IMG/VR virus record: IMGVR_UViG_3300010366_000042
Span: 1-30,735 of that record
Strand: one strand, 5' to 3'
Origin: a virus
Lineage: Duplodnaviria; Caudoviricetes
DNA: 30,735 nt
Positions 402 to 29,087 of the stretch are shown one piece after another. Made by a program: the position numbers and the translations under genes. Below the pieces are notes generated by a model. The model was not told the DNA's origin and did not search any database. It saw nothing but the letters and a program-made list of their open reading frames with translations. Every line of letters starts with the position of its first letter. The stretch's first letter is position 1.

Positions 402-1214
402 TCAGGCTGCGAGCGCAATCCGTGGCTGTGGGAACTGCTTCCGCTCGTAGCCGTCGAGCAGGCAGCCGCCGTCGTCGTGGTGCAGGCCGCCAACCTGCTT
501 GAAGAAGTGCGCCACGCCAAAACCGCCGCACTGGTGGTCGAGGTCACGCACCCACTCGATGTCGAACGGCCGATGGTGGGCGCCTGACTCGCCGCCGGTG
601 ATCACCCAGTTGATGCGCGGCATCCAGCGTGCCAGGTTCAGCGGTCCGAGCAGCGGCTCCGCGCTGACGAAGTGGACGGCCGCGGGCACCTCGAGCAGCG
701 CTTCGATGCGCGGCTCAGCCCACTTCTGGAACTCCACGCTCGTACCCAGCCAGACGTTCGGCCGCGGGTGGCGCAGCCATTCGGCTGGCAGCATGCGCTT
801 GATGTTCATCGGTCGCTTCGTGAGCAGCAGCCAGTCAAGCATGGGTGTCTGCTCGATCATGCGCCAGAGTCGCTGGCGAGCGTGATCCAACTCCGGGTGG
901 AACTCAAAGATGTCGGCCATGCTGGCGCAGAACACCAGCCTCCGCTGGGTGCCACGTACCGACGGCAGCCATCTCTTCGTCCAACTGGTGTCATTCGCCG
1001 CGGCTTTGGCGTTCCAGCGGATCGGGGACTTCCAGTTGACCTCGCCAGTCACCAGCCTGTTGCTCTTGCCGGGTGGTCCCCAGTAACCAGGGCCGCGCGT
1101 GTAGTTCGTCCAGGTTCGCGCGTAGCAGTTGTCGCAGCCCTCGCTGACTTCGTTGCAGCCCCACCATGCGTTCCAGGTGTGGTCGGTCCAGTAGATACGT
1201 GTGGTGTCACCCAT
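402..1214 (-). CDS. DUF5131 / phage Gp37-Gp68 family three-Cys protein (radical-SAM-like)
   Basis: Motifs TRIYWTDHTWNAWWGC-x6-C-x2-CYA, VFCASMADIF, LLLTKRP, NVWLGTSVE, FVSAEPLLG, WVITGGESG, FFKQVGG; RBS GAGGAG. Confidence 0.92.
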   Translation of the reverse strand: MGDTTRIYWTDHTWNAWWGCNEVSEGCDNCYARTWTNYTRGPGYWGPPGKSNRLVTGEVNWKSPIRWNAKAAANDTSWTKRWLPSVRGTQRRLVFCASMADIFEFHPELDHARQRLWRMIEQTPMLDWLLLTKRPMNIKRMLPAEWLRHPRPNVWLGTSVEFQKWAEPRIEALLEVPAAVHFVSAEPLLGPLNLARWMPRINWVITGGESGAHHRPFDIEWVRDLDHQCGGFGVAHFFKQVGGLHHDDGGCLLDGYERKQFPQPRIALAA

Positions 1215-2037
1215 CGGTTGGTTTCTCCTCGAGTGTGCGCTTCATGCGCGCGAGTAGATCGGTGTACTGCTTCGGCTGGATGGTCGAGACATCCGCGAAC
1301 TGCTGCCACGCGCGGACGCGATCGAGCACCTCGTCTTTGCTCGAGCGGCGGAGCTCTACCACGAAGCGCGAGTCAACATTGATGATGTTGTCATCGTGGT
1401 GCTCCTTGGGTTCGTACAGGTACTCAGCCTGTGTCGGTGCAAAAGGGTTGCCGGTGGCGATCGCGTCTACGAACCACACCTCGTTGCGCGCGGAGTAGCG
1501 GCTGTCCTGTCCGTACGTCACCTGCTGGTGGACTGGCAGCCACAGCCCGTCGCCACACAGCAGCACCGCGTCGTGCTCGATCACGCTCTGCTCGCGATCG
1601 CGTAGCGCGCGCCACTGTGCCCAGATGCCCTGCGGGCACTGCTCGGGGTGCAGTACGCCCACCGACTGCAGCACCAGGCTGTCACGATCGCGTCCGAGCG
1701 CGGCCACCAGCGCGTCCGATACCCAGCGGATCTGCGCGGTCACGCCGTCAATGAGCGACACGAGGTGGTCGGCAAGCGGGGGTGGCCACGGCACGCCGCA
1801 AGCAGCCACGTAGCCGTTGAACGTCGGCATGCTGAGGTCCATGTGGCCCGTCGGACCGGCGAAGAGCGTCTTCTTCCTCAGGCCGCGGTAGTAGGGCGAC
1901 TGATCCCGCCACTTGATCGTGCGGTACAGCTCGTCCATGAAGTGCTCGGGTGCCCACTTCGGCTGGCCTGGTTCAGGCCCAGGCGGGTTTTGCCAGAATG
2001 GTCGATCCTGCTTCTGTCCATCGCCTGCGGTATGCAT
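1207..2037 (-). CDS. Hypothetical protein (276 aa), overlapping the DUF5131 start
   Basis: Long ORF with protein-like composition; its stop overlaps the DUF5131 start; AAGGGAG upstream. No family recognised. Confidence 0.75.
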   Translation of the reverse strand: MHTAGDGQKQDRPFWQNPPGPEPGQPKWAPEHFMDELYRTIKWRDQSPYYRGLRKKTLFAGPTGHMDLSMPTFNGYVAACGVPWPPPLADHLVSLIDGVTAQIRWVSDALVAALGRDRDSLVLQSVGVLHPEQCPQGIWAQWRALRDREQSVIEHDAVLLCGDGLWLPVHQQVTYGQDSRYSARNEVWFVDAIATGNPFAPTQAEYLYEPKEHHDDNIINVDSRFVVELRRSSKDEVLDRVRAWQQFADVSTIQPKQYTDLLARMKRTLEEKPTDG

Positions 2038-2050
2038 CGGGCATAACTCT

Positions 2051-2263: not shown

Positions 2264-2452
2264 CTACTGGAGGTCGCGCGGACGCAGTTTGAGGGCGCGC
2301 GCCAGCTTGCGCACGCTGGACGGACGGATCGCCTTGCCCTGCTCACCGCGCATGACGGTGACCGGACTCACACCTGCCCGTGCGGCCAGATCCGCCTGAC
2401 TCAGCGCCGCCAGCAACCGCTGCCCACGCAGTTGCGGCACAAGCACCAGCAT
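2264..2452 (-). CDS. XRE/Cro-CI family HTH regulator (about 62 aa)
   Basis: LRGQRLLAALSQADLAARAGVSPVTVMRGEQGK...VRKLARAL is an HTH_3 pattern. ATG 2452 preferred over the GTG at 2488. Confidence 0.85.
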   Translation of the reverse strand: MLVLVPQLRGQRLLAALSQADLAARAGVSPVTVMRGEQGKAIRPSSVRKLARALKLRPRDLQ

Positions 2453-2538: not shown

Positions 2539-2647
2539 CTACTGCCCGTACCGTATCACTGGGCATTGCCTGGGCATACTGGTTTTGGTTCAGTCTTTAT
2601 AACTTCTCCGAACCATTTACTTGGCCGCGGTTCCACACTTCGCGGCC

Positions 2648-2830
2648 ATGGAGTCACCTACCCGCATTTCACAGCGGGTCTTCAGGGTCAGCATGCGGGA
2701 GGAGCTCTACGAGCGGTTGCTCGAATGGGCTCTCGAGGAACGCACTGACCCGAAGAGCCTCGCCAGCGTCATCCTCGAGCGCGCCGCGCGCCGCTGGAAA
2801 CCAAAGAGCATGCCGCGGCGGGCAGCATGA
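2648..2830 (+). CDS. Small DNA-binding protein, ribbon-helix-helix (Arc/CopG)-like
   Basis: RVFRVSMREELYERLLEWALEERTDPKSLASVILERA fits a strand-helix-helix pattern; first gene of the plus operon; ATGA overlap with the next gene. Confidence 0.6.
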   Translation: MESPTRISQRVFRVSMREELYERLLEWALEERTDPKSLASVILERAARRWKPKSMPRRAA

Positions 2831-9493: not shown

Positions 9494-10806
9494 CGGTGCG
9501 TCTGCTGCGCGGCGACTGCCGTGTCACCCTGTGGACCATCGAGGCCGGCAGCGTGCAGTGCGCGATTACCTCGCCTCCTTACTACGGTTTACGCGACTAC
9601 GGCACACCTCCCCTGGTGTGGGGGCAAACATGTTGTGAACATGTTCACGACTGGCAACCCGCCCATACCGCGGGCTGGAATCCCGGTGGGCAATCATCGC
9701 TCAATCGCACCGTCGATAGTCATCGCCTCAAGCAAGCCAGTATGGGTGAGCGCTGTGCCCACGTACATGACTGGCAGCAGACCGATGAATACCACAACCG
9801 CGGTGACGCTACAGCTGGACCAAAACAAAAGAGCAACAGTGGCTCGGTTACCGGCCGTGGTGTGGTGCGCTATGCCCAGTGCGATTGTGGAGCGTGGCTC
9901 GGATCGCTCGGACTCGAACCCACGCCAGAGCTCTACATCGCACACCTCGTGGAGTGCTTTCAGCATGTCAAGCGCGTTCTCCACAAAAGCGGCACGTTGT
10001 GGCTAAACCTGGGTGACGCGTACGCCGGTTCCGGCAAGGGTCCGAGCAATGGACTCTCGAGCACGGCGCACTCCGGTAATCCTCATTCGCACCTCGCGGC
10101 CCAGGTGAAGCAACTCTCCAACCGCGGCTCGCTCATGCCGCGGGACGGGCTGGTACCAGCTGGCTACAAGCCCAAGGACCTGATGCTGCTGCCGTTCCGG
10201 GCAGCGCTCGCGCTCCAGGCTGACGGCTGGTACGTGCGCTCGGTCATCCCGTGGCTGAAGCGCAACAGCATGCCCGAGTCGGTGCGCGACCGGCCGACGA
10301 CGTCGGTCGAGTACGTCTTCCTGCTGAGCAAAAGCCGCACGTACTGGTTCGACGTCGAGGCGGTTCGTGCCGCGGACAGCGGGCGGAGCTCTGGCAACGG
10401 CTTTGTCCGTGACCAGCGGCTGAGCTACGGCCGCGGCAACGACGACGAGTGGGTACCAGGCAAGGGCAGGCAGAGACGCGCGGCGGACTGGTTCTTCGAG
10501 TCGTGGCAGGGGTTATTGCTCGGCGAGCAGGACAACCCGCTCGCGCTGGTGGTGAACCCCTCAGCGTACGCAGGGGCGCATTTTGCGGTATTCCCGCCGC
10601 GACTGGTCGAGCCGATGGTGCAGGCGAGCACGCGCCCTGGCGAGGTCGTGCTCGACCCGTTCGGCGGCAGCGGCACGGTGGGCATGGTGGCCGATCGGCT
10701 CGGCAGGAACGCCGTGCTGTGCGAGCTCAGCGCGGACTATGGCCAGCAAGCCATCGAGCGCGTCGTCGGCGACGCGCCGCTGTTCGCCCAGGTGGAGGCG
10801 TCGTGA
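9490..10806 (+). CDS. DNA amino-methyltransferase, beta class (SPPY suggests N4-cytosine)
   Basis: ITSPPYYGLRDY, LWLNLGD, KPKDL, MPESVRDRPT, HFAVFPPRL, VLDPFGGSGTV. Confidence 0.93.
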   Translation: MTVRLLRGDCRVTLWTIEAGSVQCAITSPPYYGLRDYGTPPLVWGQTCCEHVHDWQPAHTAGWNPGGQSSLNRTVDSHRLKQASMGERCAHVHDWQQTDEYHNRGDATAGPKQKSNSGSVTGRGVVRYAQCDCGAWLGSLGLEPTPELYIAHLVECFQHVKRVLHKSGTLWLNLGDAYAGSGKGPSNGLSSTAHSGNPHSHLAAQVKQLSNRGSLMPRDGLVPAGYKPKDLMLLPFRAALALQADGWYVRSVIPWLKRNSMPESVRDRPTTSVEYVFLLSKSRTYWFDVEAVRAADSGRSSGNGFVRDQRLSYGRGNDDEWVPGKGRQRRAADWFFESWQGLLLGEQDNPLALVVNPSAYAGAHFAVFPPRLVEPMVQASTRPGEVVLDPFGGSGTVGMVADRLGRNAVLCELSADYGQQAIERVVGDAPLFAQVEAS

Positions 10807-11009
10807 AGCTCGAGCGGCGCTACGAACCCGAGCGCAACCCCGGCGCGCTGCTGCGCGTGCTGCTGTTCCTGATCGAGCGCGAGCTACAACAGAAAGCCGC
10901 GGCCGAAAGAGCCGCGGCTGAACCGTGGAGTGGTGGCGTCGTCCGTGAGGACGACTCAGGCGAGAATGCGCTCGCGAGCGCTCGGCATCTCGAGCATCCC
11001 TATGACTAA
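10803..11009 (+). CDS. Small hypothetical protein (68 aa) convergent with the integrase 3' end; candidate recombination directionality factor
   Basis: GTGA overlap with the MTase stop; RBS GGAGG. The RDF role is inferred from position only. Confidence 0.55.
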   Translation: MKLERRYEPERNPGALLRVLLFLIERELQQKAAAERAAAEPWSGGVVREDDSGENALASARHLEHPYD

Positions 11010-12779
11010 AGTCTTGATATTCGTCAAATCCCGGACGCTACTCATAGTGCTATCCGTACTGAAGGCGTACGTCACCTGCAGCCGCGGCAGATCCGGCTTG
11101 CCTGGCCCGGCCGCGACCGGCTCCTCCCGCGGCAGCGCGCGCACCTCGACCACCAACTCCTGGACGATGCGCTTCATGGCGACACGGTCGTTCGACGCGG
11201 TGATGTCATCGATCTGATCGCCCAGGCGGCGCATCAGGCTGGCGGTACTGGACAGGCGCGACTCGAGCGCGCTATCGACGGCGAGGTACGCCTCGACGCG
11301 GCTGATGTCGGCATCCAACTGGGCGATCTTGTCGCCGACGTCCACGAGGTCCTCTTCGATTTCCCGTATCGGGCGGTAGCGCGACGGTGAGCGGAGCGAG
11401 TCACGCAGGTGCAGTTGTGTCTGCTCGAGTACGCGCCGCTGGCTGCGTAGCTCGTCGTGCTGCCGCTGGTATAGCGCGCCATTGGACTGGCGCCCGCGCA
11501 GCGTACGCTGCAGCCCGGCGAGCACCTCGTCCGGGTGCTTGACTGCCCACACGAGGTCTTGCCAGATGACGTTCTCGACCTCGACGTTGACCATCGGCCC
11601 GTTGCACGGCGCGCCGCGGCGACGCGCGAAGTCAGCGTTGCGTCCGTTGCAGCGGTAGTAGCGGTACTTCTTGCGACCATCGGCCGAACTGTTGGTAATG
11701 CCGCCCGTGTAGCGCAGGTCGCACGGCGTGCCGTCAGGCAGCGTGCCGGAGCAGATGATTTTCTTGGACAGCGTGTAGACGTGGTCGTCGTGCGTCCCGT
11801 TCCACTTGTTGTTGCGCTTGAGGCGATCGTTGGCGGTCTGCCAGACCGACTCGCTCACGATGCCCGGCACGGACTGGTCGAGGTCGCGCTGGTCGAAGCT
11901 GAGGTTGCGCTCACCCTTGTAGACGACGTTCTTGATCGTTGCCCACACGCGCTGGTTGTTCCAGCGGCCATTTGTCTTGTCGGTGCTGCGCTGGTGCTGC
12001 TTGTTGAACCAGCGCTGGGTGGACGGCACGCCCGCGTCCGCGAGCCAGTCGGCGACGGCGTAGCACGTTTCGCCGGCGGCAACGCGCTCGAAGATCTGCT
12101 GCACCAGTTCGGACTCGGTGATAGCGAGCATCTCGACCGCACGCCGGCTGGGCACGAGGTGGTTATCGACCACGTCGAAACCGAATGGCACCAGTCCGTT
12201 GATGAACTCACCGGCGGACGCGACACGGTGCTTACCGTTCATAGTGCGCTCGCGAATCGTGGCACGCTCGAGCTCGGCAAGGCTGGCCAGGAGCTGGAAC
12301 ACGAAGCGACCGATCGCTTGCTGTGGGCCCGGCCGTGTGTCAAACGGCTCGGTCGCGCTGGTGATGGCGACGTTGCAGCGCTCCAATTCGTCGTGTGCGT
12401 CGATCAGCACACGCGCCGAGCGGCCCAGCCGGTCCAGCTTGTAGATGATGACGACGTCGAACATGCCCGCGCGTGCGTCGTCGAGCAGGCGCCGACCATC
12501 CGGCCGGTCGCCCAGAGCCTTGGCGCCGGACCAGCCGTCATCGCAGTACTCGCCCACGAGTTGCATGCGCACCGCGGTCGGTGCGTCGTCACGAAAGTCA
12601 GCACGGAACTTGTCGTGCAGGTAGATGCGCTGGGCCTCGACCGTGCCTTTCTCTTCCTGCTCGTCGGTGCTGACGCGGTAGTAGAAGACGACCCGCAGCA
12701 CGCCCGCGGTGTCAGCCGACACCTCTGTTTTCAGTGCGAGCGCTCGCCGGCGAGCGCGCTCTTTGAGTATCCTAGACAT
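10956..12779 (-). CDS. int: Large serine recombinase (phage integrase)
   Basis: YYRVSTDEQ (catalytic Ser), DDGWSG, YKLDRLGRS, ELERATIRERT, recombinase domain (PFGF, YKG), Zn ribbon (ICS...C...YYRC...C), coiled coil. ATG 12779 preferred over 12818. Confidence 0.95.
   Translation of the reverse strand: MSRILKERARRRALALKTEVSADTAGVLRVVFYYRVSTDEQEEKGTVEAQRIYLHDKFRADFRDDAPTAVRMQLVGEYCDDGWSGAKALGDRPDGRRLLDDARAGMFDVVIIYKLDRLGRSARVLIDAHDELERCNVAITSATEPFDTRPGPQQAIGRFVFQLLASLAELERATIRERTMNGKHRVASAGEFINGLVPFGFDVVDNHLVPSRRAVEMLAITESELVQQIFERVAAGETCYAVADWLADAGVPSTQRWFNKQHQRSTDKTNGRWNNQRVWATIKNVVYKGERNLSFDQRDLDQSVPGIVSESVWQTANDRLKRNNKWNGTHDDHVYTLSKKIICSGTLPDGTPCDLRYTGGITNSSADGRKKYRYYRCNGRNADFARRRGAPCNGPMVNVEVENVIWQDLVWAVKHPDEVLAGLQRTLRGRQSNGALYQRQHDELRSQRRVLEQTQLHLRDSLRSPSRYRPIREIEEDLVDVGDKIAQLDADISRVEAYLAVDSALESRLSSTASLMRRLGDQIDDITASNDRVAMKRIVQELVVEVRALPREEPVAAGPGKPDLPRLQVTYAFSTDSTMSSVRDLTNIKTLVIGMLEMPSARERILA
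11000..11047. other. Candidate attP: 48-bp imperfect inverted repeat with central GT at 11023-11024
   Basis: Left arm CTATGACTAAAGTC... versus reverse-complemented right arm CTATGAGTAGCGTC...; 14 of 24 positions symmetric; AT-rich relative to the flanks. Confidence 0.5.
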
Positions 12780-12781
12780 TG

Positions 12782-12799
12782 CTACTTCCCTTTCTTCAT
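12782..12799 (-). CDS. Mini-ORF MKKGK* directly upstream of the integrase
   Basis: ATG AAG AAA GGG AAG TAG, preceded by CAACCG; the stop lies 2 nt before the int ATG. Confidence 0.45.
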   Translation of the reverse strand: MKKGK

Positions 12800-12818
12800 C
12801 GGTTGGGGGACAAAGCAT

Positions 12819-12850
12819 CCCCGCGGCGGGAATCCGTCGCGGGGTTTCTT
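12819..12850 (+). terminator. Intrinsic terminator-like hairpin, best formed on the + strand
   Basis: CCCCGCGGCGG-GAAT-CCGTCGCGGGG (11 bp, one G-U) followed by TTTCTT. Confidence 0.6.
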
Positions 12851-12878
12851 GTACCTGACTATGTACTTACTTTTCCAG

Positions 12879-12986
12879 TTAGAGCCACGCGCCGGTCAGG
12901 TAGTGGTAGCCGTAGACGACGATCACCATCGACCACGGCAGACTGAGCACGACGATGGCGATGGCGGAGTCGAGGCGCCTTGTCAC
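12879..12986 (-). CDS. Small single-TM membrane protein (35 aa)
   Basis: GTGA overlap with the XRE stop; hydrophobic stretch AIAIVVLSLPWSMVIVVYGY. Confidence 0.55.
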   Translation of the reverse strand: MTRRLDSAIAIVVLSLPWSMVIVVYGYHYLTGAWL

Positions 12987-13285
12987 AGTGACACCTGCTG
13001 CGCTCGCCGCAGCGCTGCATCCTGTTTGCCGCGCTGGCTGCGGGCGCCCAGAGACTGTCGATCGGCAGCGCTGAGCGAACGGCGGCGCTGAACGGCAAGC
13101 TGCTCGAGTTCTGCGACCTGACGACGCTCGAGTGTCTCGAGCGCGAGGTCCAGATACGGCGGGATCTCTCGCCGGCCCTGCTCCCACGCTGCCACGGTCT
13201 GCTGGTGGATGCGCAGCTGGTCCGCCAGTTTGGCCTGCGAGATGTTCCAGGCCAGACGCCATGCCTTGAGTCGCTCGGGCGTCAT
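12983..13285 (-). CDS. XRE family HTH regulator
   Basis: MTPERLKAWRLAWNISQAKLADQLRIHQQTVAAWEQGRREIP. Confidence 0.9.
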   Translation of the reverse strand: MTPERLKAWRLAWNISQAKLADQLRIHQQTVAAWEQGRREIPPYLDLALETLERRQVAELEQLAVQRRRSLSAADRQSLGARSQRGKQDAALRRAQQVSL

Positions 13286-13467
13286 GGCACGTACACCTCG
13301 TGGGCATAGAGCGTCACCTCGCTGCCATCCGGCTTGCGACAGACCACGAGCAGATCGTGACGCACGACGGTGAGCGGGGTACGGCTGTCGTCCAGCATGG
13401 CGAGCACGGTGGTGCCCGGCTCGAGCACCGCAGGGTCGATATCCGCGGGTACGGGTACGGTGTTCAT
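13282..13467 (-). CDS. Hypothetical protein (61 aa; in-frame upstream GTG at 13560 gives 92 aa)
   Basis: GAGGAAT-CAACCG-ATG start; ATGA overlap with the XRE gene. Confidence 0.7.
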   Translation of the reverse strand: MNTVPVPADIDPAVLEPGTTVLAMLDDSRTPLTVVRHDLLVVCRKPDGSEVTLYAHEVYVP

Positions 13468-13556
13468 CGGTTGATTCCTCTTTTCGACAGCGTCGATATC
13501 CGCCAAGCAGCGGTCTAGCAGCGCGCGTGCTGCGGGCGAATACTCGATAGACGCGC

Positions 13557-14051
13557 TCACGACTGACCTCCGTACGCGTCGATCATGATGGCCAGCGCTT
13601 CGCTGAGCGGCCCGACGACCGGGTCGCTCTCCGGCAACGATTCGATGTGCGCCTGCAGCGCGGCAATGGCCGTCTCTAACTCGCCGAGTGATTCCTGAGC
13701 GACGACCTGGACGCGCTCGACGTAGTCGTCGCGCCATGCACGAATTGATTCGAGAATGGCGGCGGCGATCGCCTCGCCATCCTCAGACTCACTCGACAGC
13801 GGTGTCTCGATGTTCAGGTGCGTCATGTCCCACTCGTCACCGATGATGTCGTAGACGTTGGCGCCGATCATCGTGTCGCACACACCGAACGTCAGTCCGG
13901 TGGTGGCGTTTAGCGGGATATCAATCGACGGGCCGGCCTGTCCGAAGTTGTAGGTCGAGCCGGGGTAGGCTTGTGCCACGGCACGGAATGCTTCGAGCCA
14001 ACCGTCTACGACGGCGCGCGCGTGGCGCTGTGGTTCGGTGAGGGTGTTCAT
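13557..14051 (-). CDS. Hypothetical acidic protein (164 aa)
   Basis: CAACCG-ATG start overlapping the upstream TGA. Confidence 0.75.
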   Translation of the reverse strand: MNTLTEPQRHARAVVDGWLEAFRAVAQAYPGSTYNFGQAGPSIDIPLNATTGLTFGVCDTMIGANVYDIIGDEWDMTHLNIETPLSSESEDGEAIAAAILESIRAWRDDYVERVQVVAQESLGELETAIAALQAHIESLPESDPVVGPLSEALAIMIDAYGGQS

Positions 14052-14665: not shown

Positions 14666-14684
14666 CGGTTGTCTCCTATCAGGT

Positions 14685-15362: not shown

Positions 15363-15399
15363 CGGTTGTCTCTCTCTCTCAGGTGTGAACACTCCGGGC

Positions 15400-16224
15400 C
15401 TACGCGGCCCGGGCAAGTCGTACGACGAAACCGGAGGTATCCTTGCGCGCCCGGCCCTTAGCCTTGAGACCAAGAATTACCCCGGCCGGGTCCAGGAATC
15501 GCAAATCGTCCGCGTCCGCGTTGACCACACGGCGCCCAGCGTAAATGTCGGGTAGTGCTTTCTCGAATACGACCGCGACACTCCCACCGGCCGCGAGCAC
15601 AGCCGCGACGTCCGCATCGTTCACCTCACTACGCGAAAACGTGAGGTGATAGTTCGCGGGCATCTCACCTCGCGCATGTTTGATCGCGCGCTCAGGTGAT
15701 TTGGTGTAGTCGTAAAATTGCACATCCGGAAACGTCTCTAGAATGGTGCGACCATCGCGCAGTTTGCGTAGTTCGAACGGTACATCTGACGTGCCGTTGA
15801 GACGTACACACGGAATCAGTCCGTGCTTCCGAGCCCTACGAACGTGCGCCTCTATCTCACGCACAAGCACATCATTGAAGATGTGCCGGAAGTGGCGCAT
15901 TGCCAAGGTGCGATTGATACGCGCTAGTTGAATGTTGTTTGTCGTCTCGCCTTTCTTGAAAATGCCTCCGCGGCCGGCCAGATTCAAACACCCGGACGTG
16001 CAACCGGCCGAGCGCCAATGGCAGACGTCAATACCCGAAAGGTCCGCCGGCGCGAGGTGAAGAATGGCTGTGCTGTAGCCTTTCGCCCGGCCTTTCTTTG
16101 TCTTCGGGTTGTACCCGTCTGGGGTGAGCATGTTTGCAAAGCCCAGTGCCTTGTACTGCGCCTTGAGTGTCTTCGCGTTAGCGAGCGCGATCGCGCGCTC
16201 GCCTTGTGCTTCGGTTGTGTTCAT
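15400..16224 (-). CDS. GP88-family phage protein (radical-SAM-like Cys cluster)
   Basis: LHLAPA..SG.DVC-x6-C-x3-CL..AGRG, VRLNGTSD, VQFYDYTK, NYHLTFSRSE, DDLRFLD, GLKAKG.A.KD.SGFV. Confidence 0.8.
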   Translation of the reverse strand: MNTTEAQGERAIALANAKTLKAQYKALGFANMLTPDGYNPKTKKGRAKGYSTAILHLAPADLSGIDVCHWRSAGCTSGCLNLAGRGGIFKKGETTNNIQLARINRTLAMRHFRHIFNDVLVREIEAHVRRARKHGLIPCVRLNGTSDVPFELRKLRDGRTILETFPDVQFYDYTKSPERAIKHARGEMPANYHLTFSRSEVNDADVAAVLAAGGSVAVVFEKALPDIYAGRRVVNADADDLRFLDPAGVILGLKAKGRARKDTSGFVVRLARAA

Positions 16225-16556
16225 CGGTTGACCTCAGTCACAATCGCGCCGTCACCGGCGTAGAACATCGTGCGCGCAAGGTGAACCTTGCATACACGGA
16301 CGGAATGATTGTCAGTGTCCGTAACCACGTAGGCTACGTCGCGATCATCGCAATACTCACAGAGGTCCGCCGCTTGCCGCGCCAATAGTGCCGCATGCTT
16401 GCGCGCATTGCGCAGCAACAAGAAGCTACGTCCTACGCGGCCGTCCCGGCCGTCAACAATGTAGTAGAAGCGCTCGCGCCCAGTGCCGTACGTCTCAATT
16501 TCGTACGGCCCATAGACCATACTGCGCCCAGCGGAGCGCTCTTCGGTTGTGTTCAT
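16221..16556 (-). CDS. Hypothetical protein (111 aa), probably leaderless
   Basis: ATG lies 7 nt after the -10 TATAGT; CEYC...CKVH; ATGA overlap with the GP88 gene. Confidence 0.7.
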   Translation of the reverse strand: MNTTEERSAGRSMVYGPYEIETYGTGRERFYYIVDGRDGRVGRSFLLLRNARKHAALLARQAADLCEYCDDRDVAYVVTDTDNHSVRVCKVHLARTMFYAGDGAIVTEVNR

Positions 16557-16563
16557 CGCGCAC

Positions 16564-16657
16564 ACTATATGCGCGCTTGACGCATAGGACAAGGGTAATG
16601 GTCCGTTTTGTGACACCGGTAACGTCCAGGTAATGAGCTCGTAAAGCTACGGTTGAG
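16564..16657 (-). promoter_or_regulatory. Promoter cassette copy 2: TTGTCC-N17-TATAGT, operator TATGCG-N7-CGCATA (16568-16586), 11-bp phased repeats 16619-16657
   Basis: Near-consensus promoter; perfect 6-bp inverted repeat in the spacer. Confidence 0.7.
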
Positions 16658-16664
16658 ACAGACT

Positions 16665-16691
16665 AGAGAGAGAGAGAGAGAGAGAGAGAGA
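16665..16691. repeat. (AG)13A microsatellite
   Basis: Directly visible in the intergenic region between the divergent transcription units. Confidence 0.95.
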
Positions 16692-16773
16692 TAGGGTGTT
16701 ATGACCATATATCGCGATAAATCGCCTATCACCGTTGCTGGGCCCCGGTCAATATCTTTACGCTCGCGCACAA

Positions 16774-17235
16774 GTGGCCGCCACCGCTCATAACCTCGCG
16801 CATAACCCTACACCTCGACAACTCGCGGCTGAGGTCAGACGCGAAGAAAGACGAGCACGCGCGCGCGACATCTTCCTAGAGGCACTAGCGCGCGACGGTA
16901 ACCTCACCTCCGCATGTCGTGTGGCCGGTGTCGGCCGAGCAACCGTCTACGTGTGGCAGGAAGAATCAGACCAATTCTCCGCGGCTGTGCGTGAGGCACA
17001 ACTACAAGCAACCGAAGTGCTCGAAGCGGAGGCTTGGCGCCGAGCGCGCGATGGCACACCGGAGCCTATCTACAACCGTGGTCAGGTGGTTGGCACAGTC
17101 CAGCGCTACTCCGATCAACTCCTAATGTTCTTACTGAGAGCGCGGGCGCCCGAGCGCTATCGCGACCGTGTAGATGTGAGTGTCACTCCGGTGATAAAGG
17201 CAGTCGCCGGGTTTGATCCGGCAGACGTCATCTAA
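16774..17235 (+). CDS. terS: Terminase small subunit (HTH); start uncertain (16774 GTG or 16735)
   Basis: FLEALARDGNLTSACRVAGVGRATVYVW HTH; LEAEAWRRA; YSDQLLMFLLRARAPERYRD; lies upstream of terL. Confidence 0.8.
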   Translation: MAATAHNLAHNPTPRQLAAEVRREERRARARDIFLEALARDGNLTSACRVAGVGRATVYVWQEESDQFSAAVREAQLQATEVLEAEAWRRARDGTPEPIYNRGQVVGTVQRYSDQLLMFLLRARAPERYRDRVDVSVTPVIKAVAGFDPADVI

Positions 17236-17314
17236 CCTATGTCTCCGGCAATTCAAGAACAGCCGGACACAGCGGCCGCCACCGCATGCCGCGCTCAGCT
17301 GACACGCGTTCTAA

Positions 17315-17430
17315 GGGCGCGCGCCAGGCGCCCGCACGCGCGCGCGACCCCCGCGGGTACCACCCGCGGCTCGTTTCGGCGCCCTGGCTTTACCCGGACA
17401 GTGAAGTTCAGAGAATTATTTTTTCTTTGT
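17315..17430. other. terS-terL spacer with a CG tract, hairpin and T-rich patch; candidate packaging site
   Basis: CCGCGGGT-ACC-ACCCGCGG (17351-17369), CGCACGCGCGCGCG, AATTATTTTTTCTTT; the base skew appears to flip here. Confidence 0.35.
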
Positions 17431-17456
17431 GTGAGAAGGGGGTTGAGCTCGGGGGC

Positions 17457-18788
17457 GTGGTAAGTCGGGCGAGTGTCGAGCGAGGGAAGCGGCGAGTAGA
17501 GAAAGAAGAAGAGCGGAGTTTCAGGCCGTGGGGGAGTGCGCTGGCGCTGATGAGGATGCGTGAGCGCGAGGTGTTAGTGGCGGGACCGGCGGGTACGGGG
17601 AAGAGCCGGGCATGTTTAGAGAAGCTGAACCTGGTGGCGATGCAGGCACCGATCCGTGGGGCGATAGTGCGGAAGGTGAGGAAGACGCTGAGTCAGGCAG
17701 CGCTGGTGACATTTGAAGAGAAGGTAATGCCGAAGCCGCATCCTGCGCGGTTCTGGACGGAGGACCAGGAGTACAGGTATGGGAGTGGGGCGGTAGTAGC
17801 GGTCTGTGGGCTAGACGATCCTGAGAAGATCAAATCGACGGAGTTTGATTTGATTTATGTACAGGAGGCGACGGAGCTTGAGCAATTGGACTGGGAGCTG
17901 CTCGTGTCCAGGCTACGAAACGGGCAACTCAGCTATCAACAGATCATCGCTGACTGTAATCCCGCGGACCCCTTTCACTGGATCAAGCAGCGATGTGATC
18001 GAGGTGAGTGTGTTCTGCTGGATTCACGGCATGAGGACAATCCGCTTCTCTACGACCACGAGCGGGGAGAGTGGACAGAGTTTGGGCGAAGGTATCTAGA
18101 GACGCTGGATACGTTGACGGGGTACACGTATCAGCGATTGAGGTTAGGGCAGTGGGTCGCAGCGGAGGGGATGTACTTCACGGAATGGAATCCTGAGGTA
18201 CATGTGGTAGACAGTTTCGAGGTACCCGAGGAGTGGCCGCGGTGGGTGGGGGTAGATTATGGGTTTGCGAGTCCGTGGTGCTGCTTATGGCTGACGCGGG
18301 ACCCGGAGACGAGGGTGGTGTATGTGTATCGGGAGCGGTATGGGGCTGGGCTGAGGGACGAAGAGCAGGCGCAGGAGATTTTGCGGGCGAGTGAGGGGGA
18401 GCGGCTAGTAGCGAAGGTATTGGACCCGAGCATGTTCAACAGTAGGAGTGAGCAGATGCGGCCCAGTATTGCGCAGGTGTATGCGGGTGTACTGGGTGAG
18501 GTAGTAGCGGGGATGAACAATCGACGGACGGGGTGGTCGATTGTGCGGGGGATGTTGGATACGCGGAGAGAGGGTGGGCCGCGGCTGCGGGTGATGCGGG
18601 GGCGAGCTCCGAATTTAGAGCGGACAGTACCGGCGATGGTGATGGACCATCTGGATCCTGAGGACCTGGCGGACAAGGTGAGGGGGAACAAGACCGAGGA
18701 TCACGCGGTAGACGCCTTGAGGTATGGACTGTGTGCTGAGGCGCAGCCGGAGGCAGCGCGGGACGTGGTGGAGCTCCGCTGGGGATAG
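17457..18788 (+). CDS. terL: Terminase large subunit
   Basis: Walker A GPAGTGKS, Walker B IYVQEA, DCNP, HWIK, DNP, nuclease GVDYG, EDHAVDALRY. GTG 17457 preferred over 17286. Confidence 0.95.
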   Translation: MVSRASVERGKRRVEKEEERSFRPWGSALALMRMREREVLVAGPAGTGKSRACLEKLNLVAMQAPIRGAIVRKVRKTLSQAALVTFEEKVMPKPHPARFWTEDQEYRYGSGAVVAVCGLDDPEKIKSTEFDLIYVQEATELEQLDWELLVSRLRNGQLSYQQIIADCNPADPFHWIKQRCDRGECVLLDSRHEDNPLLYDHERGEWTEFGRRYLETLDTLTGYTYQRLRLGQWVAAEGMYFTEWNPEVHVVDSFEVPEEWPRWVGVDYGFASPWCCLWLTRDPETRVVYVYRERYGAGLRDEEQAQEILRASEGERLVAKVLDPSMFNSRSEQMRPSIAQVYAGVLGEVVAGMNNRRTGWSIVRGMLDTRREGGPRLRVMRGRAPNLERTVPAMVMDHLDPEDLADKVRGNKTEDHAVDALRYGLCAEAQPEAARDVVELRWG

Positions 18789-18791
18789 GGG

Positions 18792-19514
18792 ATGGTAGTC
18801 AGCGCGCAGCACTTCCGCGAAGTGACGAACGGGTTTGAGCAGACGAGCGGTGGGTTATGGACGCACCGTGGGCATCTGATTGCGCGGAGCACGCCGCAAC
18901 GGATGGCGAGTTCGCCGAACCCGTATCGGGACAGCAACGTGGAGTTGATGGTAGATACGCCGAACGAGCCGCGGCTGGGGTTCCACGAGAGCAACTCGAC
19001 GGCGCTGACGTTATACAAGACGCAGGGCAGCAACACCGAGCTGCGGGTTCGTGGGAATGATGGGACGGACTACCCGCTAGCTGGGAATGCGGGGTCGATC
19101 ACCACGGCGATGTTGCAGGCGAATGCGGCAACCTTGCTGGTCATCGACGCCGGGGCGTACAGCAACTTCTCGTCCACGTCGAGTGGGCAGTGGATCGAGA
19201 CACCGATCAACGGCAGCGGCAACTTCAGTGGTGCCCAGGTCAGAATCGACATCAGCACAGTGGTTATCTGCACCACTGCCACCATCAATATCTACATGGG
19301 TTGGGGGTGGGACGGTGCGGTCACGGCGTCGATGCTGCTGGTCTACTGCCCGCAGAACTACTACGTGCCGATGAACAGTTTCGTCTACACCGCCCCGCCG
19401 AGCGCGGGCACGCACAAGATGTCGATGTTCATCCACAACGCCAGTCCGAGCACCACGTTCGGGTTGTCGAACGCGATTCCCTCCCGTTGTAGCGTCATGG
19501 AGTTCCGCCGATGA
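18792..19514 (+). CDS. Hypothetical virion protein; beta-rich C-terminus, tail-fibre/receptor-binding-like
   Basis: GSITTAMLQANA linker then a Ser/Thr-rich beta-type domain ending PSAGTHKMSMF...VMEFRR. Confidence 0.5.
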   Translation: MVVSAQHFREVTNGFEQTSGGLWTHRGHLIARSTPQRMASSPNPYRDSNVELMVDTPNEPRLGFHESNSTALTLYKTQGSNTELRVRGNDGTDYPLAGNAGSITTAMLQANAATLLVIDAGAYSNFSSTSSGQWIETPINGSGNFSGAQVRIDISTVVICTTATINIYMGWGWDGAVTASMLLVYCPQNYYVPMNSFVYTAPPSAGTHKMSMFIHNASPSTTFGLSNAIPSRCSVMEFRR

Positions 19515-21646
19515 GTCTGGGCACGGGTGCGCCGACTGGCTGGTTCAAGAGTAGTAGTGCTCAGGACGCGATGGAACGTGGGACGATGGAGCTGGCGCAG
19601 GAGTTGCGGCGTCAGTTCCGGGATCGGGACGAATTGTACGCGGACATTGACGCGGTGCTGTTTGGGGAAGTGCCGGTAGAGATTCCGGAGGCGTACGCGA
19701 AGACCGCGCTCGAGGTGAGGAGTCCGCTGGCGTTGCACATTGCGACGACGGTGACGGCGGCGCTGAGTGTGAATCCGATGAGTGTGATGTTCAAGCCGGT
19801 GGGGTTTGGGGACGCGGCTCAGCAGAACAGCACGCTCAGGGAGAAGTACTTCGAGGCGAGTTGGAAGCGGCAAGAGGCCGAGTCCAAGCGGCAATTGCTG
19901 AGGTTGTTCTTGTGGAGCTTGGCGGTCAAGGGTGAGGGGATCCTGAAGACGGTCGAGCGCAGCAAGAGTGCGTGGTCGAGCTATGACCAGAAGGCGCAGG
20001 ACCTGCAGAAGGAATTGGACAAGGTCAAGGAGTACGACCAGGCGGCGCGGGACCAGCTGTACGACCATGGCACGGAGGAGTACAAGCTGGCGTTGCCGTA
20101 CCCGATCATGACGACGGACGTTCCGCCCGAGACGTTTTATTACACGAAGAACGAGAACGGGCTGACGAGCGTGGTCGAGGTGAAGGAAGTGCCGTATGTG
20201 GAGGCACTCGAGCGGTTCGGGGCTGGGCTGGATAGTAGCGGCAACGTGGTGGACCCGAAGACGTGGTCGGGGCTCGATCCGAGGGCGATGGAGTTGGCGC
20301 GGGCAGAGTGGACGCATCTGATGAAGGGTGCAGCCACGAACACGATCAGGTGTGTGGAGGCGTGGGACCACGAGGTGCAGGTGGTCTTGCTGAGCGGCCC
20401 CAATCAGAGGAACAAGTCGGGGAGTCTGGGGACGGCGACGCTGTGCAACGTGGTCAGGCATAGCTATGGGGACCCGATTTTGAAGACGCTGCGGGGTCCG
20501 TATTTCCATGCACTGGGGATCACGACGGCGAGCAGGCTACCGGAGCACGCGGGGCTGAGTATTCTGTTCGGGTTTCTGCGGTTGTTCCCGTTGCTGGACA
20601 GCTTGCTGACGATGCAGGGGAACGCGGCGTTTCTGACGGGGTTCCCGGCGTTCAAGAAGACGACGCCGCCGGGGGTGGTGCCGGGGCTGACGAGCGCGCC
20701 GTACGGCAATGATGGGCGGGAGAAGGCGAAGGGCGACGTGATCGAGCCCGGCAAGCTGTACCCGTACGACATTGCGCCCATTGACCAGCCAAAGAGTGGC
20801 ATTGATTCGGACAAGCTGATCGACAACATCAAGAGCATGCTCGAGTGGGCGTTGCCGAGCGCGGTACAGGGCCTGGTGGCCAGCGATCAGTCAGGGTATG
20901 CGCTGAACCAGGCGGCGTATCTGGCGCGATTGAGTTGGGACCCGATCGTGAAGAACGCGGAGGTTGCGCTGGGCGATCGGGTGGGCTTCGAGAGCTGGCT
21001 GATCGAGTCGAGGATAGGCGAGAAGGTCTACGCGTGGGGCGAGGAGGAGGCCAAGCGCGGGCGGAAGACGATCGCCGGTCAGACGAAGGCTGGCTGGGTA
21101 GGGGTAGGGCCGGACGATCTGAAGGGGGTACATCGGTACGAGGCGAAGCTGAGTCCGAGCACGCCGAGCAACGAGATCATTCAGATTCGCGCGATCGGTG
21201 AGAAGATGCAGTTGAAGTTGATCTCGTACGAGGACGCCGTGGAAGACGCGGGCAGTAATCCCGACGAGGTGGAGCGCAGCTGGCTACTGCACGACATCAA
21301 GAACTCGCAAGAGATACAGGGTGTGCTGAAGCAGAAGATCTTCCAGGAGCTCGCGACGATCATGGGCAAACAGATGAGTGGACCGGGTATGCCGAGTCCG
21401 CAGGAGATGGCCGGGGGGCCGGGGCCTGGTGCGACCGGGGTACCCGGTGGGACACCCGGTGCACCTCCTGCGGGTCCGCCCGGTGGCATGCCAGGCAATC
21501 CCGTGCCGAGTCCAGGGCAGGGATTACCGCTCGCCCCGCCGCCTCCAGCAGGGGCGGGCGGTGGCATGCCGCCGGGTGGGATCCCGGGCGCACCGGTGGT
21601 ACCGGGTCCGCCAGCCAATGCGTTGCCGTTACCTGGGGGCAGGTAG
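19511..21646 (+). CDS. Probable portal protein with a Pro/Gly-rich C-terminal tail
   Basis: Size and position after terL; LAVKGEGILK, VPPETFY, SGYALNQ are portal-like; low-complexity tail. Confidence 0.7.
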   Translation: MSLGTGAPTGWFKSSSAQDAMERGTMELAQELRRQFRDRDELYADIDAVLFGEVPVEIPEAYAKTALEVRSPLALHIATTVTAALSVNPMSVMFKPVGFGDAAQQNSTLREKYFEASWKRQEAESKRQLLRLFLWSLAVKGEGILKTVERSKSAWSSYDQKAQDLQKELDKVKEYDQAARDQLYDHGTEEYKLALPYPIMTTDVPPETFYYTKNENGLTSVVEVKEVPYVEALERFGAGLDSSGNVVDPKTWSGLDPRAMELARAEWTHLMKGAATNTIRCVEAWDHEVQVVLLSGPNQRNKSGSLGTATLCNVVRHSYGDPILKTLRGPYFHALGITTASRLPEHAGLSILFGFLRLFPLLDSLLTMQGNAAFLTGFPAFKKTTPPGVVPGLTSAPYGNDGREKAKGDVIEPGKLYPYDIAPIDQPKSGIDSDKLIDNIKSMLEWALPSAVQGLVASDQSGYALNQAAYLARLSWDPIVKNAEVALGDRVGFESWLIESRIGEKVYAWGEEEAKRGRKTIAGQTKAGWVGVGPDDLKGVHRYEAKLSPSTPSNEIIQIRAIGEKMQLKLISYEDAVEDAGSNPDEVERSWLLHDIKNSQEIQGVLKQKIFQELATIMGKQMSGPGMPSPQEMAGGPGPGATGVPGGTPGAPPAGPPGGMPGNPVPSPGQGLPLAPPPPAGAGGGMPPGGIPGAPVVPGPPANALPLPGGR

Positions 21647-26300: not shown

Positions 26301-28885
26301 TCGGCCGCCGCGTGCAGGCAGAGATGGCGGATATCCCGGTCGATCCGGCGATTCGCGACGCGCTGAACAACGCCAATACCAGCCTGCGGATGCGCCAGCA
26401 CGCGCTCGACATGGAACTCAACGCATCGGTGCCCGATTCCACCCGAGTGGCCGCGTTGCGGCGTCGTGTGTCCGCTGCTCAGACGGTGCTGAACCGTCGT
26501 CAGGCTGACTTCGACGCGGCGCAGCAGGACATCCTCAACAACGCCGCGCAGGGCGGCATCGACGCGCGTACCAACCGTCAGTTCTCGGGCGACCTGAACG
26601 TCGCCGATTCGGAGCAAGCGCTTGCGGATATGCCAGCCGAGATGGGGCCAGAACGCTGGAACCGCGTCCAGGGTGCGGCCAATCAGGTCTACAACTACGT
26701 CGATGCGCTCCGCCAGCGCATGCTCGAGAGCGGCCTGATCAACCAGGACACGTACGACCAGTGGTCGCATGACATGCCGCACTGGGTACCAACGAACATC
26801 CTCGACTACGTCGATGAGACGGTCGATAAGCCGCTATCAGGCAGCGGGCAGCGCATCAGCCTCGCCGACAACGGGGTGCGCCAGTACACCGTCGATGGCA
26901 CTCAGCGTTTCCGCGAGAACCCGCTCGGCGCGCTGTACGACCTCGCTCATCAGGTCGAGTCGAGAGCGCGCAAGAACGATGCGGTGAACGCGCTCGTCAA
27001 CCTGGACGAGCTCGCCGCGCCCGCCGATCGCGTGCTGCAACAGACGGATCGCCCCGCGCTGGGCAACGAGAATGTCATCTCGCGCATCAACGACGGCACT
27101 GTCGAGCGCTATATCGCGCCGTCCGACCTCGCCGCGGTGGTCAACGGTACGCAGATCGAGCGCGCACCGGGCTTCGTTCGCAACTGGACCAACTTTGTTC
27201 GCAACATGGCGACGATCAGTAGCCCGGTCTTTGCGCTGGTGCGTAATCCGTCGATGGACATCCCCGAGTACCTGACGCGCGAACTCGCGCGCGAGGGTGG
27301 CAATCCACTCGCCATCCCGCGCATTCTGGGTCAACTCGGCGCAGGTTACGCCGATGCGTTTCAGGGCTTCACCCACGGTGAGTTTCAGGGTCAGGGCGCG
27401 CAGCAGTACCGGCTCGGTGGCGGCGGCAGCGCGAGCAGCGTCGTGCGCTCGGTTGCCGATCGGCAGCGTGCAATCCAGGCGCTGCAGGAAGGCACTGGCA
27501 TCGAGGTCCAGTCGGCGAGCGATTTTGGTCGTATTGCACGCGACGTCGGCTCGCTGGTGCCGTCGATCGCCGAGCGCACGGAGATGGGTCCGCGCATCGC
27601 CAGCATGCGGCTCGCCGAGCAGCGCGGTGCGACGCCGCTGCGCGCGGTGATGAACGGTCGTACGGTGACGATCGACTTCAACGAGGGCGGCAACTTCGCC
27701 AAGACGATCAACCAGTTCGTACCCTTCTTTAATGTAGGGCTGCAGAGCACGGCGCAGATGGCGCGCATGTACCGCGAGAACCCGCGCGGCATGGTCGCGT
27801 CGATGATGATGCTCGCGGGAGCTCCCGCGGCTGCGGCCGAGGCGTGGAATCGTAGCGACCCACAGCGCAGCAAGGACTACGACGACGTGCCGCAGTACCT
27901 GAAGGATCAGGGCGTCGTGGTGATGCTGCCCGGCGACGCGCCCGTCGATAAGGACGGTAACCGCAAGCCAAACTTCTACTGGTTCAATACGCGCGGCGGC
28001 GCGCCGTTCAGCACCATGGCGCGCGAGGCGACGGACCGCGTGCTCTCGGCGTCAGGCAACGAGAACGCCAGGGTGACCAGCGCGAAGGATCTGCTGGGAC
28101 AACTGCTATCCGGTGCTTCACCCGTGCGCGCAAGCGCGGTGGGCGATCTGCCCGCCGCGCTGACCCCGGAACTCATTCCCGGGCTGAGCACAGGTACCCA
28201 GCTGGCGATGAACAAGGACGTCTTCCGCGGTCGCGACATCGTCTCCAAGCAGGCCGACGAGGACGCACCGCAGGCCGCGCGCGAAGTCGCCCACGGCCTC
28301 ACAGCGGCGGCGCGCCTCGTGAACCCGCAGTACGACATCCATCCATCGCAGGTGGACTTCGCCGTGCGCGACATGCTGGGTGGTGTCGGTACCACGGCGG
28401 AGGGCGCGCGTGAGTTGCCGTTCGTGCCTGGCGCTGAGCCGCAGCAGGGTAGCGAGCCGCAGAAGCTGCCCATCGCCGGTGGCATTCTGAAGGGAATCGG
28501 GTACCGCGGCGACACAGGCGAGGTCGGGCGCGAGGCGCGCGAGCAGTTGCTCACCGACTCGGCGCAGCGCTACTTGCAGTCGGAGGGCATCGAGTACGTG
28601 CCCTCCGCAGTGGGCGACAAGATCGAGGACCTGCCGCTGCTACGCAACGAGCAGGCGCAATATCAGCTCGCGGCCAACCGTTACGTCGATGACGCGATCC
28701 ACATCGTGCAGCAGCGCGGTCTGCTCGAAGGCAAGACGCAGGACGTGAAGACGGCGATCGTGCAGCAAGCGGTCGCCGAGGCGCACGACAAGGCAGCGGG
28801 CGAGGTGGTCAGGTCGATTCCGTACGCCCAGATGCGTCAGCGCGTCGAGGCGGCGATCGCCAAGCAGCAGGCTGGAACGCCCTAG
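23372..28885 (+). CDS. 1837-aa polyvalent internal virion protein: SLT transglycosylase, C39-like peptidase, LPD38-like C-terminus
   Basis: QESGFNP...GVAQFMPGTA...AYNAGPG...ETQRYV; ACGPAAA...GHYFTADGYD; TIDFNEGG...NQFVPFFNVGLQ...NKDVFRGRDIV. Confidence 0.85.
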   Translation: MSMLPDVDQDSWDQHQNDQFMANADHQISMLDYDHQTNSAIADLGRMAALAQAPTPSDSLTNPIGTGNAQPAEQPEPAQEAAPAAVASDQPAATPVQTTAPIISSSVQPSPSPSPPAPPPDQSQDTGGLGGLLNSVMAAGGDAAHFADQVRSGTGDAMTAAMNAVVKGGGDLEQFVGSLGGSQHAPTTVNAPPAVAGGPLQDYARGAAQRAGIDPDIFVRQIQQESGFNPGARSPAGATGVAQFMPGTAQGMGIDPTDPYASLDAAAQLDAGNLKRYGGDWSKVLAAYNAGPGNVEKYGGVPPFAETQRYVNTILGNQPTPSDALTNPLGTGNAATSTRDISQFGNPQLTNDEAYAACGPAAAVRFAQRFGRNPTLREAVDLAATVGWTSANGMAGLGSEKALMDKMGVPTKLVSGADWGTFANEAMTGNPVTISTQGHYFTADGYDPATNRFHVGRSGMDLRNGSEWMTPEQMTAVMGPVQGGLLADNPQVAAPSVADQDTNPGGWLDRSQAAMASSFNPPADTQQMSRARARGVSAIAPDDGMTMSAASVGTPSPIDQAIDAVGNTAQDLGQPVRDVMGGQQQTQDQSAQPQGVWDKIGSGIADVFKSAFGGGDNTMTPSMQPTPSESLTNPAGTRYQQQPTEPQPSEPGLPVRSLEPTVDANQPPTLSQAIRQGYDDAMQTPVGSAAGATAAALFEPGRALKDLQQVGPALGVPQGADLSAVGDYLLAGKGPIQDAKERAAAGLENLAQGISDAGVPVLSGAGALATRFAEDVVKSKPMAVEWTEGQKTLNDLAAKYGGDPKLGAYDPNLVDRMSDEDRALYDQTLNNMTMMVGGMVGGVGGHGPGGAARPTPGDSANAAVRAVDASLGAVPPGAGPQGNPFQRFVRAWTNRNEAADRFQQGSLRDAGLTDQELLNPDEAYDLSSRLRTLDGGSAASQTIENLLKPAIRAAGDDVDWLQNVLTHQNNVEVADEIGRRVQAEMADIPVDPAIRDALNNANTSLRMRQHALDMELNASVPDSTRVAALRRRVSAAQTVLNRRQADFDAAQQDILNNAAQGGIDARTNRQFSGDLNVADSEQALADMPAEMGPERWNRVQGAANQVYNYVDALRQRMLESGLINQDTYDQWSHDMPHWVPTNILDYVDETVDKPLSGSGQRISLADNGVRQYTVDGTQRFRENPLGALYDLAHQVESRARKNDAVNALVNLDELAAPADRVLQQTDRPALGNENVISRINDGTVERYIAPSDLAAVVNGTQIERAPGFVRNWTNFVRNMATISSPVFALVRNPSMDIPEYLTRELAREGGNPLAIPRILGQLGAGYADAFQGFTHGEFQGQGAQQYRLGGGGSASSVVRSVADRQRAIQALQEGTGIEVQSASDFGRIARDVGSLVPSIAERTEMGPRIASMRLAEQRGATPLRAVMNGRTVTIDFNEGGNFAKTINQFVPFFNVGLQSTAQMARMYRENPRGMVASMMMLAGAPAAAAEAWNRSDPQRSKDYDDVPQYLKDQGVVVMLPGDAPVDKDGNRKPNFYWFNTRGGAPFSTMAREATDRVLSASGNENARVTSAKDLLGQLLSGASPVRASAVGDLPAALTPELIPGLSTGTQLAMNKDVFRGRDIVSKQADEDAPQAAREVAHGLTAAARLVNPQYDIHPSQVDFAVRDMLGGVGTTAEGARELPFVPGAEPQQGSEPQKLPIAGGILKGIGYRGDTGEVGREAREQLLTDSAQRYLQSEGIEYVPSAVGDKIEDLPLLRNEQAQYQLAANRYVDDAIHIVQQRGLLEGKTQDVKTAIVQQAVAEAHDKAAGEVVRSIPYAQMRQRVEAAIAKQQAGTP

Positions 28886-29061
28886 TGGCCTCGTATGGCG
28901 GCGATCATGCCGAGCAGCAGGAACAGCAGGAATGGGGCGCCCAGGATGACGAAGAGCGTCTTGCCGGTTTCGGTCGTGCTCTGGCTGGTGACGTACAGGC
29001 CAATTCCCCAGAAGGACAGTACGGTCAGCGTCAGCCACGTAGGTATCGGGGGTATTTTCAT
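28882..29061 (-). CDS. Two-TM membrane protein (59 aa) antisense within the virion operon
   Basis: CAACCG-ATG start; two hydrophobic helices; fills the gap between two + strand genes; TATGCT upstream could be a -10. Confidence 0.7.
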   Translation of the reverse strand: MKIPPIPTWLTLTVLSFWGIGLYVTSQSTTETGKTLFVILGAPFLLFLLLGMIAAIRGH

Positions 29062-29087
29062 CGGTTGGTGCAGGGAGCATAACTGAG

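Follow-up and report, generated by a model that had tools for sequence, protein, structure and literature searches.

The locus described here raises the question of why a single short sequence, CAACCG, stands directly before one start codon after another on the same strand of a phage genome. The window, which is the whole stretch of 30,735 nucleotides analysed, is a 30.7-kb virus record encoding a serine integrase, a primase, a terminase and a large virion protein with an SLT domain. Complete relatives measure approximately 40–45 kb, and the record is therefore probably a fragment. An early accessory operon occupies the minus strand and is divergent from the small terminase gene. The likely genetic switch contains two divergent small genes, 2264–2452 (minus strand) and 2621–2830 (plus strand), of which the leftward encodes a 62-aa HTH protein, short for a CI-type repressor.

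An exact count over the whole window revealed eight copies of CAACCGATG on the minus strand and none on the plus strand, whereas 100 dinucleotide shuffles averaged 0.34 copies and never exceeded 2. All eight copies lie where a preliminary description of this DNA had placed them. The hexamer CAACCG is followed by ATG in 8 of its 17 minus-strand occurrences and in none of the 15 on the plus strand, which agrees with the reported absence of the motif from plus-strand starts; the association has a binomial p of ~4e-8 after correction for all hexamers and both strands. Also present in the sequence, as reported, are four extensions to CAACCGATGAAC, the overlaps of the tag with the ends of upstream genes (GLNR*, EVNR* and KPTDG*) and the hexamer in codons 3–5 of the gene at 16556. 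The claim that every copy opens a reading frame stood for the seven that are gene starts, but not for the copy at 12797, which opens only the five-codon frame MKKGK*. The start-tag feature in the window is real. The tag, 6–9 nt long, lacks an SD core and either adjoins the AUG or overlaps it. The AA that continues after ATG in six of the eight copies is explained by the loop complement of CAACCGATGAA described below.

Five of the seven tagged starts belong to the early operon, one to a DUF5131 gene and one to a small gene that stands alone in the virion region. By profile search all seven genes are non-structural or of unassigned function, and no plus-strand virion gene in the window carries the tag. 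The DUF5131 tag, located by the motif count at 1212–1220 (minus strand; gene 402–1214), is absent from both orthologues inspected, which are 81% and 82% identical. Within the operon, also on the minus strand, the tag marks the starts of a 61-aa accessory gene (13282–13467; tag at 13465–13473), the orthologues of which carry other tags or none; a 164-aa accessory gene (13557–14051; tag at 14049–14057, within the last codons of the upstream gene); a 205-aa accessory gene (14048–14665; tag at 14663–14671, between SD and ATG); a 197-aa accessory gene (14769–15362; tag at 15360–15368); and GP88 (15400–16224; tag at 16222–16230), where a second CAACCGA follows at 16209–16217. The remaining tag, at 29059–29067 (minus strand), is located at the start of a 59-aa hydrophobic gene (28882–29061). 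This start indeed lacks an SD; it has instead a -10-like hexamer, TATGCT (29076–29081), 8 nt upstream of the tag, which would thus be nearly the entire leader of the gene. The first early gene is apparently leaderless, and the minus-strand region of its start (16541–16556) contains CAACCGA in codons 3–5. Homologues align from residue 1–6 at four tagged starts (DUF5131, 13467, 15362 and GP88), and no N-terminal homologue support was found for the starts at 14051, 14665 and 29061. An 18-nt direct repeat (16209–16226 and 16541–16558) spans the starts of GP88 and the first early gene. GP88 is the first, leaderless gene in several relatives, so the first early gene of the window may be a later insertion.

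Two sigma-70-like early promoters were assigned by consensus match only, at 16564–16592 (minus strand), 7 nt before the ATG at 16556, and at 14685–14712 (minus strand), before gene 14665; 2.4 would be expected in shuffles. Upstream of both promoters there is an ESAS-like 39-nt repeat on the minus strand (16619–16657, with a second copy, 85% alike, at 14714–14752), which includes an imperfect palindrome; the 17-bp inverted repeats of ESAS were not found. The repeat begins with CTCAACCG. Because CTCAACC is also found before the early promoter in L001 and L004, which carry a different tag, it is probably a separate DNA element. Other repeated sequences in these regions include a minus-strand (CT)n tract upstream of the early promoter (16664–16692), with a similar tract in L027; a (GA)n tract (15369–15379) that serves as the SD before gene 15362; and a longer element upstream of tagged genes in G013, G014 and G016.

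The copy at 12797 makes better sense on the plus strand, where it constitutes the loop of a predicted RNA of ~73 nt. The predicted -10 box, TATCCT (12768–12773, plus strand), precedes the first hairpin by 6 nt, with the same spacing in relatives. The -35 region is poor and contains no convincing -35 element, and the promoter call is a consensus match only. Folding places hairpin 1 at 12780–12817 (plus strand), with the complement of the tag as its loop; it is followed at 12819–12852 (plus strand) by a predicted intrinsic-terminator-like hairpin (11 bp, GC-rich) with a U tract, again assigned by consensus match only. The seed (12795–12805, plus strand) is the complement of CAACCGATGAA. In the predicted ensemble, positions 12796–12800 and 12803–12804 are unpaired with p >= 0.9, and 12801–12802 and 12805 are mostly paired, which gives a predicted accessible seed complementary to several translation starts. 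The two-hairpin RNA folds with z = -3.7 to -4.4, and the cassette strand reaches -34.6 kcal/mol with four G-U pairs versus -29.2 kcal/mol and none for its mirror. A structure-only scan, in which the motif was not used, returned this cassette as the sole one in the window, and it came first of 67 candidates when -10 boxes were scored by how well the adjoining sequence complements the starts. Rfam covariance models gave no match in window positions 10000–18000 at E<=1 or, at gathering score, in six cassette-bearing loci of relatives.

The opposite strand encodes the large serine integrase (607 aa; 10956–12779, minus strand; entry P0121, profile search), the start of which is at 12779 and not at 12797. 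The predicted RNA is antisense to the whole of the integrase 5' leader, ribosome-binding site included, and the small-RNA -10 box lies antisense within integrase codons 2–4. These three codons are rare in the window (TCT, 13/405 Ser; AGG, 30/504 Arg; ATA, 8/260 Ile), for which AT-rich N-termini could be an alternative explanation. No close integrase relatives were found in viral contigs, and a metagenome integrase search returned only the contig of the window itself (L353) and two weak fragments.

At the seven tagged starts, the RNA is predicted to form duplexes of 10–13 bp with energies of -16.6 to -25.2 kcal/mol. The corresponding values are -9.9 to -14.8 kcal/mol at six untagged minus-strand starts, some of them guessed, and -8.9 to -19.4 kcal/mol at 18 plus-strand starts. 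Two untagged plus-strand starts (-18.0 and -19.4) lie within the tagged range, and energy alone therefore does not separate tagged from untagged starts cleanly. Pairing at the leaderless start at 16556 is predicted to be weak (-12.8 kcal/mol). The start of the presumed portal gene (19505–19515, plus strand) contains the partial tag CCGATGA, and its predicted duplex with the loop, -19.4 kcal/mol, makes it a possible additional target; no cultured-phage match was found for this gene. An unrestricted duplex-energy scan was discarded, since it was swamped by the targets' own antisense strands and by GC-rich windows.

We further compared the window with related phages, whose terminases are 48–81% identical to that of the window. 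Whole records were fetched for 31 of the 37 relatives, which have a common gene order; G026 (rearranged gene order), G021 and G029 (no tag defined) and six of the 37 records were left out. The exact 9-mer was found at no early-gene start in 57 terminase loci, and the exact motif occurs there as three scattered copies in two loci, with five copies in 80 GP88 loci. A 14-mer search of viral contigs yielded 120 loci, none with two same-strand copies. Inspection revealed, however, that 28 of the 31 fetched relatives have a tag of their own. On the records compared, the exact motif is private to a lineage, although motifs of its class are present. Among the related phages at least ten different tags are found, including GGCACCC, GGAGACCCAC, GGAGCAATCT, GCAAGACA and GAGTAGTTCC. 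They are positioned between the SD and the start codon, or just 3' of the ATG in leaderless genes; many contain the SD core, and most have the form of an SD with an extension. Judged by its terminase, G029 is the nearest relative; its record stops short of the integrase gene, and the available part contains no downstream tags. L021 (G008) has a long, apparently structured non-coding leader before its first tagged gene. Searches of genome contigs by terminase or integrase found no relative that would point to the host.

A cassette built of a -10 box, 5–7 nt and an anti-tag hairpin is present in 23 of the 28 tagged relatives. With the window counted, there are 24 cassettes, from 24 of 29 tagged genomes and ten tag groups. 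The five genomes in which the search found no cassette are G003, G024, G025, G028 and G031, two of which are ~44 kb long. In the GGCACCC group one reversed tag recurs, mostly downstream of the integrase, in a unit of -10 box, hairpin and terminator. Eight further groups have units with a different, matching loop, that of G010 coming from the structure-only scan. In G011 and G012 the unit is antisense to the start of the gene behind the early operon, as in the window, and this gene encodes an integrase-like protein in G011; the anti-tag is located in the second hairpin, unlike in the window. Alignment of eight GGCACCC-group cassettes showed two-sided changes at 11 of 17 pairs with a nearly invariant loop, a value reached by 0 of 500 shuffles and compared with 2–6 in slid controls. 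This conserved structure with compensatory changes was found in eight relatives of one tag group; no close homologue of the window's own RNA was among the sequences compared. The tag groups are scattered on the terminase tree (30 rows), which implies that loop and tag changed or moved together more than once.

Gene starts were called without reference to the motif, and perfect matches of at least 7 nt to the loop window were counted: 84 of 173 starts of the same phage have one, as do 277 of 574 starts of the same group and 150 of 3405 starts of other groups. These statistics are partly circular in that most cassettes were located via the anti-tag and the rows are related phages. The window scores 5/7 in this count because the gene caller mis-set the start of gene 15362. 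When phages are ordered by duplex energy with each RNA, the phage that encodes it comes first against other groups in 15 of 24 rows; for the RNA of the window, its own phage is only 4th of 24. The structure-only filter, which was tuned on seen examples, picked up 8 of the 23 cassettes already known, along with 8 others. When 15 structure-only cassettes were scored on their own starts, seven beat all but 3 of 300 random windows and eight did not.

Additional cassettes were observed elsewhere in these genomes. In G002, G006, G007 and G017 a cassette without second hairpin is antisense to the large terminase leader, and its -10 box overlaps the large terminase start codon. Further cassettes antisense to integrase-like or HNH-like starts are found in G006, G007, G015, G016, G017 and G031, with that of G031 antisense to a 55-codon frame. 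Some phages may have two such RNAs.

Given the observed tag positions, the complementarity of loop and tags and the matched loop–tag differences among relatives, we consider it likely that the tag is the site of a phage sRNA (~12780–12852, plus strand) that pairs over the tagged starts and represses their translation. Of the two agents suggested under one option of the preliminary description, a translational regulator or an sRNA, the comparison favours the sRNA, with a candidate gene on the other strand of the '12797 copy'. Host polymerase would make the RNA from the plus strand. Pairing would begin at the loop and lengthen to 10–13 bp, covering the stretch from SD to AUG or, in leaderless messages, reaching into the first codons. 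An sRNA bound over either region normally blocks initiation. All sites lie where the ribosome binds, and for this reason the bound RNA is expected to block ribosome loading and lower translation of the tagged genes as a group; a site in the ribosome footprint would also be expected to move behind the AUG where a gene is leaderless, as the tag does. The integrase would be silenced in cis by this RNA. The absence of the tag from DUF5131 orthologues is consistent with a target that fits itself to the local RNA. In the proposed sequence of events, host polymerase would fire the early operon, the lone small gene, the integrase and the sRNA together, and accumulation of the RNA would shut off the tagged genes after an early pulse. 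The RNA would also keep these genes off in the lysogen and damp a superinfecting phage bearing the same tag. Delayed shut-off and silence in the lysogen are favoured because the tagged genes lie largely behind host-type promoters; the role in immunity is less certain than pairing with repression. A broader interpretation is possible and is offered tentatively: one RNA of ~70 nt would silence every gene with the private tag, and joint change of loop and tag would create a new immunity group. The RNA would then probably derive from an integrase antisense RNA, and new genes would join by acquiring the tag, with no change of protein repressor needed.

Other explanations of the tag can be weighed against RNA pairing. 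A phage protein might bind it as an RNA operator or a stoperator-like DNA site, in which case the hairpin would be the mirror of the integrase leader with a two-way terminator. Many cassettes do overlap opposite-strand integrase, terminase or HNH starts, a small HTH gene with matches in 31 of the 37 records searched ends the early operon, and G-U-tolerated target variants are not enriched (19/362 vs 15/259, p 0.86), so the targets provide no G-U bias. We nevertheless consider a protein improbable. In nine GGCACCC-group cassettes the longest opposite-strand frame starting inside is 1–67 codons, and cassettes of this group without a sizeable opposite ORF keep the -10 box, the compensated stems and the U tract. 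G-U pairs sit on the anti-tag strand (2–7 per cassette vs 0–2 on the other strand). Of the two strands, that of the RNA gives the more stable fold in 30 of 30 cassettes, a count biased by the selection of hairpins on that strand. A start-phased site of 6–9 nt is short for a DNA repressor. Cluster A stoperators, by comparison, are 13-bp DNA sites bound by a protein repressor, are not phased to AUG and have no complementary RNA cassette, and they share with the tags the many asymmetric, phage-specific sites in one orientation. These elements are named in the cluster K study of Pope et al. (PMC3203893).

It is hardly probable that the RNA pairs with the tags but activates translation, protects messages or acts only in cis on the integrase. 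Such a role would suit an RNA that is fully complementary to the integrase leader and matches other starts over 10–13 bp only, and some second cassettes facing integrase or HNH genes have loops that match few or no early starts. Yet the sites overlap the SD–AUG stretch or the first codons, where a bound RNA is normally inhibitory, and with action in cis alone there would be no selection for matching tags at seven distant starts. The proposal that the tag is a junction for swapping accessory genes by recombination, or a relic of start duplication, is decidedly improbable, although the starts at 16556 and 16224 share the 18-nt direct repeat, and G028, a member of the GGCACCC group, has a foreign tag before a shared gene. 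In GGCACCC-group early regions 37 of 448 alignment ends lie <=15 nt from a tag versus 4.6% expected, a weak support for the microhomology cassettes suggested previously; 92% of the ends lie elsewhere, gene starts are natural breakpoints anyway and recombination near tags could be a by-product of their presence. Recombination also leaves unexplained the reversed copy in the hairpin loop and the tags of DUF5131 and 29061. Least probable of all, and very unlikely in our view, is pairing of the tag with 16S rRNA helix 45, or a host translation-enhancing spacer. The preliminary description pointed to the complementarity of CAACCG to the E. coli-type 16S, but the conserved 16S end cannot follow ten different tags. 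The related phages use at least that number, each group with a matching phage-borne loop, and no plus-strand CAACCG in the window precedes ATG.

The favoured reading, repression by an RNA that pairs with the tags, can be compared with known systems. Small phage RNAs that pair with phage mRNA include P1 C4, P22 Sar, lambda OOP and aQ and BTP1 STnc6030, and the P4 CI RNA is a further one of this kind. In the accounts available, each of the first five acts on a single gene or operon (PMC8198154, PMC12197685) and holds down lytic or antirepressor functions or excludes superinfection. By contrast, the loop predicted here would address seven dispersed starts in addition to the integrase, and its address varies between relatives. 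GcvB (PMC3879156) is an example of the bacterial sRNAs that act in trans on many targets. Such RNAs use a single seed for many targets, pair at translation initiation regions and end in an intrinsic terminator, as the RNA proposed here would; the latter differs in being phage-encoded, in acting on the phage's own genes and in its near-perfect hairpin-loop seed, private to each lineage. The sequence comparisons lend good support to a putative form of antisense control in which the phage uses a seed private to its lineage and tags the genes of its own regulon.

The closest parallel to the tags themselves is provided by the start-associated sequences (SAS) of cluster K mycobacteriophages. In the sections available of Pope et al. 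(PMC3203893), SAS is a 13-bp motif at non-structural starts, composed of an SD core and a conserved extension unable to pair with rRNA; its binder is left open as RNA or protein, and one reversed copy is reported in four K1 phages. A SAS-like motif is also described for cluster EF Microbacterium phages (PMC7302621). The contrast drawn previously between SD-like cluster K sequences and a tag that is not SD-like fails on this account, since an SD core with a non-pairing extension is the form of most relatives' tags. Like SAS, the window tag is short, asymmetric and phage-specific, is located within a few nt of start codons in one orientation, is restricted to non-structural genes and is conserved beyond SD pairing, and a promoter-linked repeat lies upstream in both cases, ESAS in cluster K and an ESAS-like repeat in the window. 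Unlike the 13-bp cluster K/EF consensus with its SD core, the window tag has 6–9 nt at the AUG, lacks this core and is also found 3' of the AUG in leaderless genes. On this comparison, the window tag is one that works like SAS but differs from the cluster K sequence. The available parts of the SAS descriptions (PMC3203893, PMC11373665, PMC7302621) propose no antisense RNA gene, and a literature search, mostly outside subscription journals, found no paper proposing an antisense RNA for SAS-like tags.

In Adephagia (JF704105, about 58650–58724), the interval between genes 92 and 93 contains a long plus-strand hairpin that carries the single reversed SAS in its loop, and the region has matches in 170 phage records. 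Freeman et al. (2024) report late transcription initiation between the same genes (PMC11373665). Among 12 aligned cluster K phages the loop is kept in six, altered in three and absent in three, and the altered loop of Tierra does not follow its unchanged SAS. Given this mixed conservation, the extension to cluster K is a lead and not a result: RNA-addressed logic would also explain SAS in part of that cluster, and the reversed SAS of Adephagia offers a cultured test case. Start-associated sequences have been described since 2011, and the available part of the 2024 paper still calls their role unknown (PMC11373665). For these sequences the phage family described here provides a specific, testable mechanism with ten natural loop–tag pairs. 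If it is true, phages control their own genes through programmable RNA regulons, and the loop–tag pairs would constitute a ready set of orthogonal translational switches.
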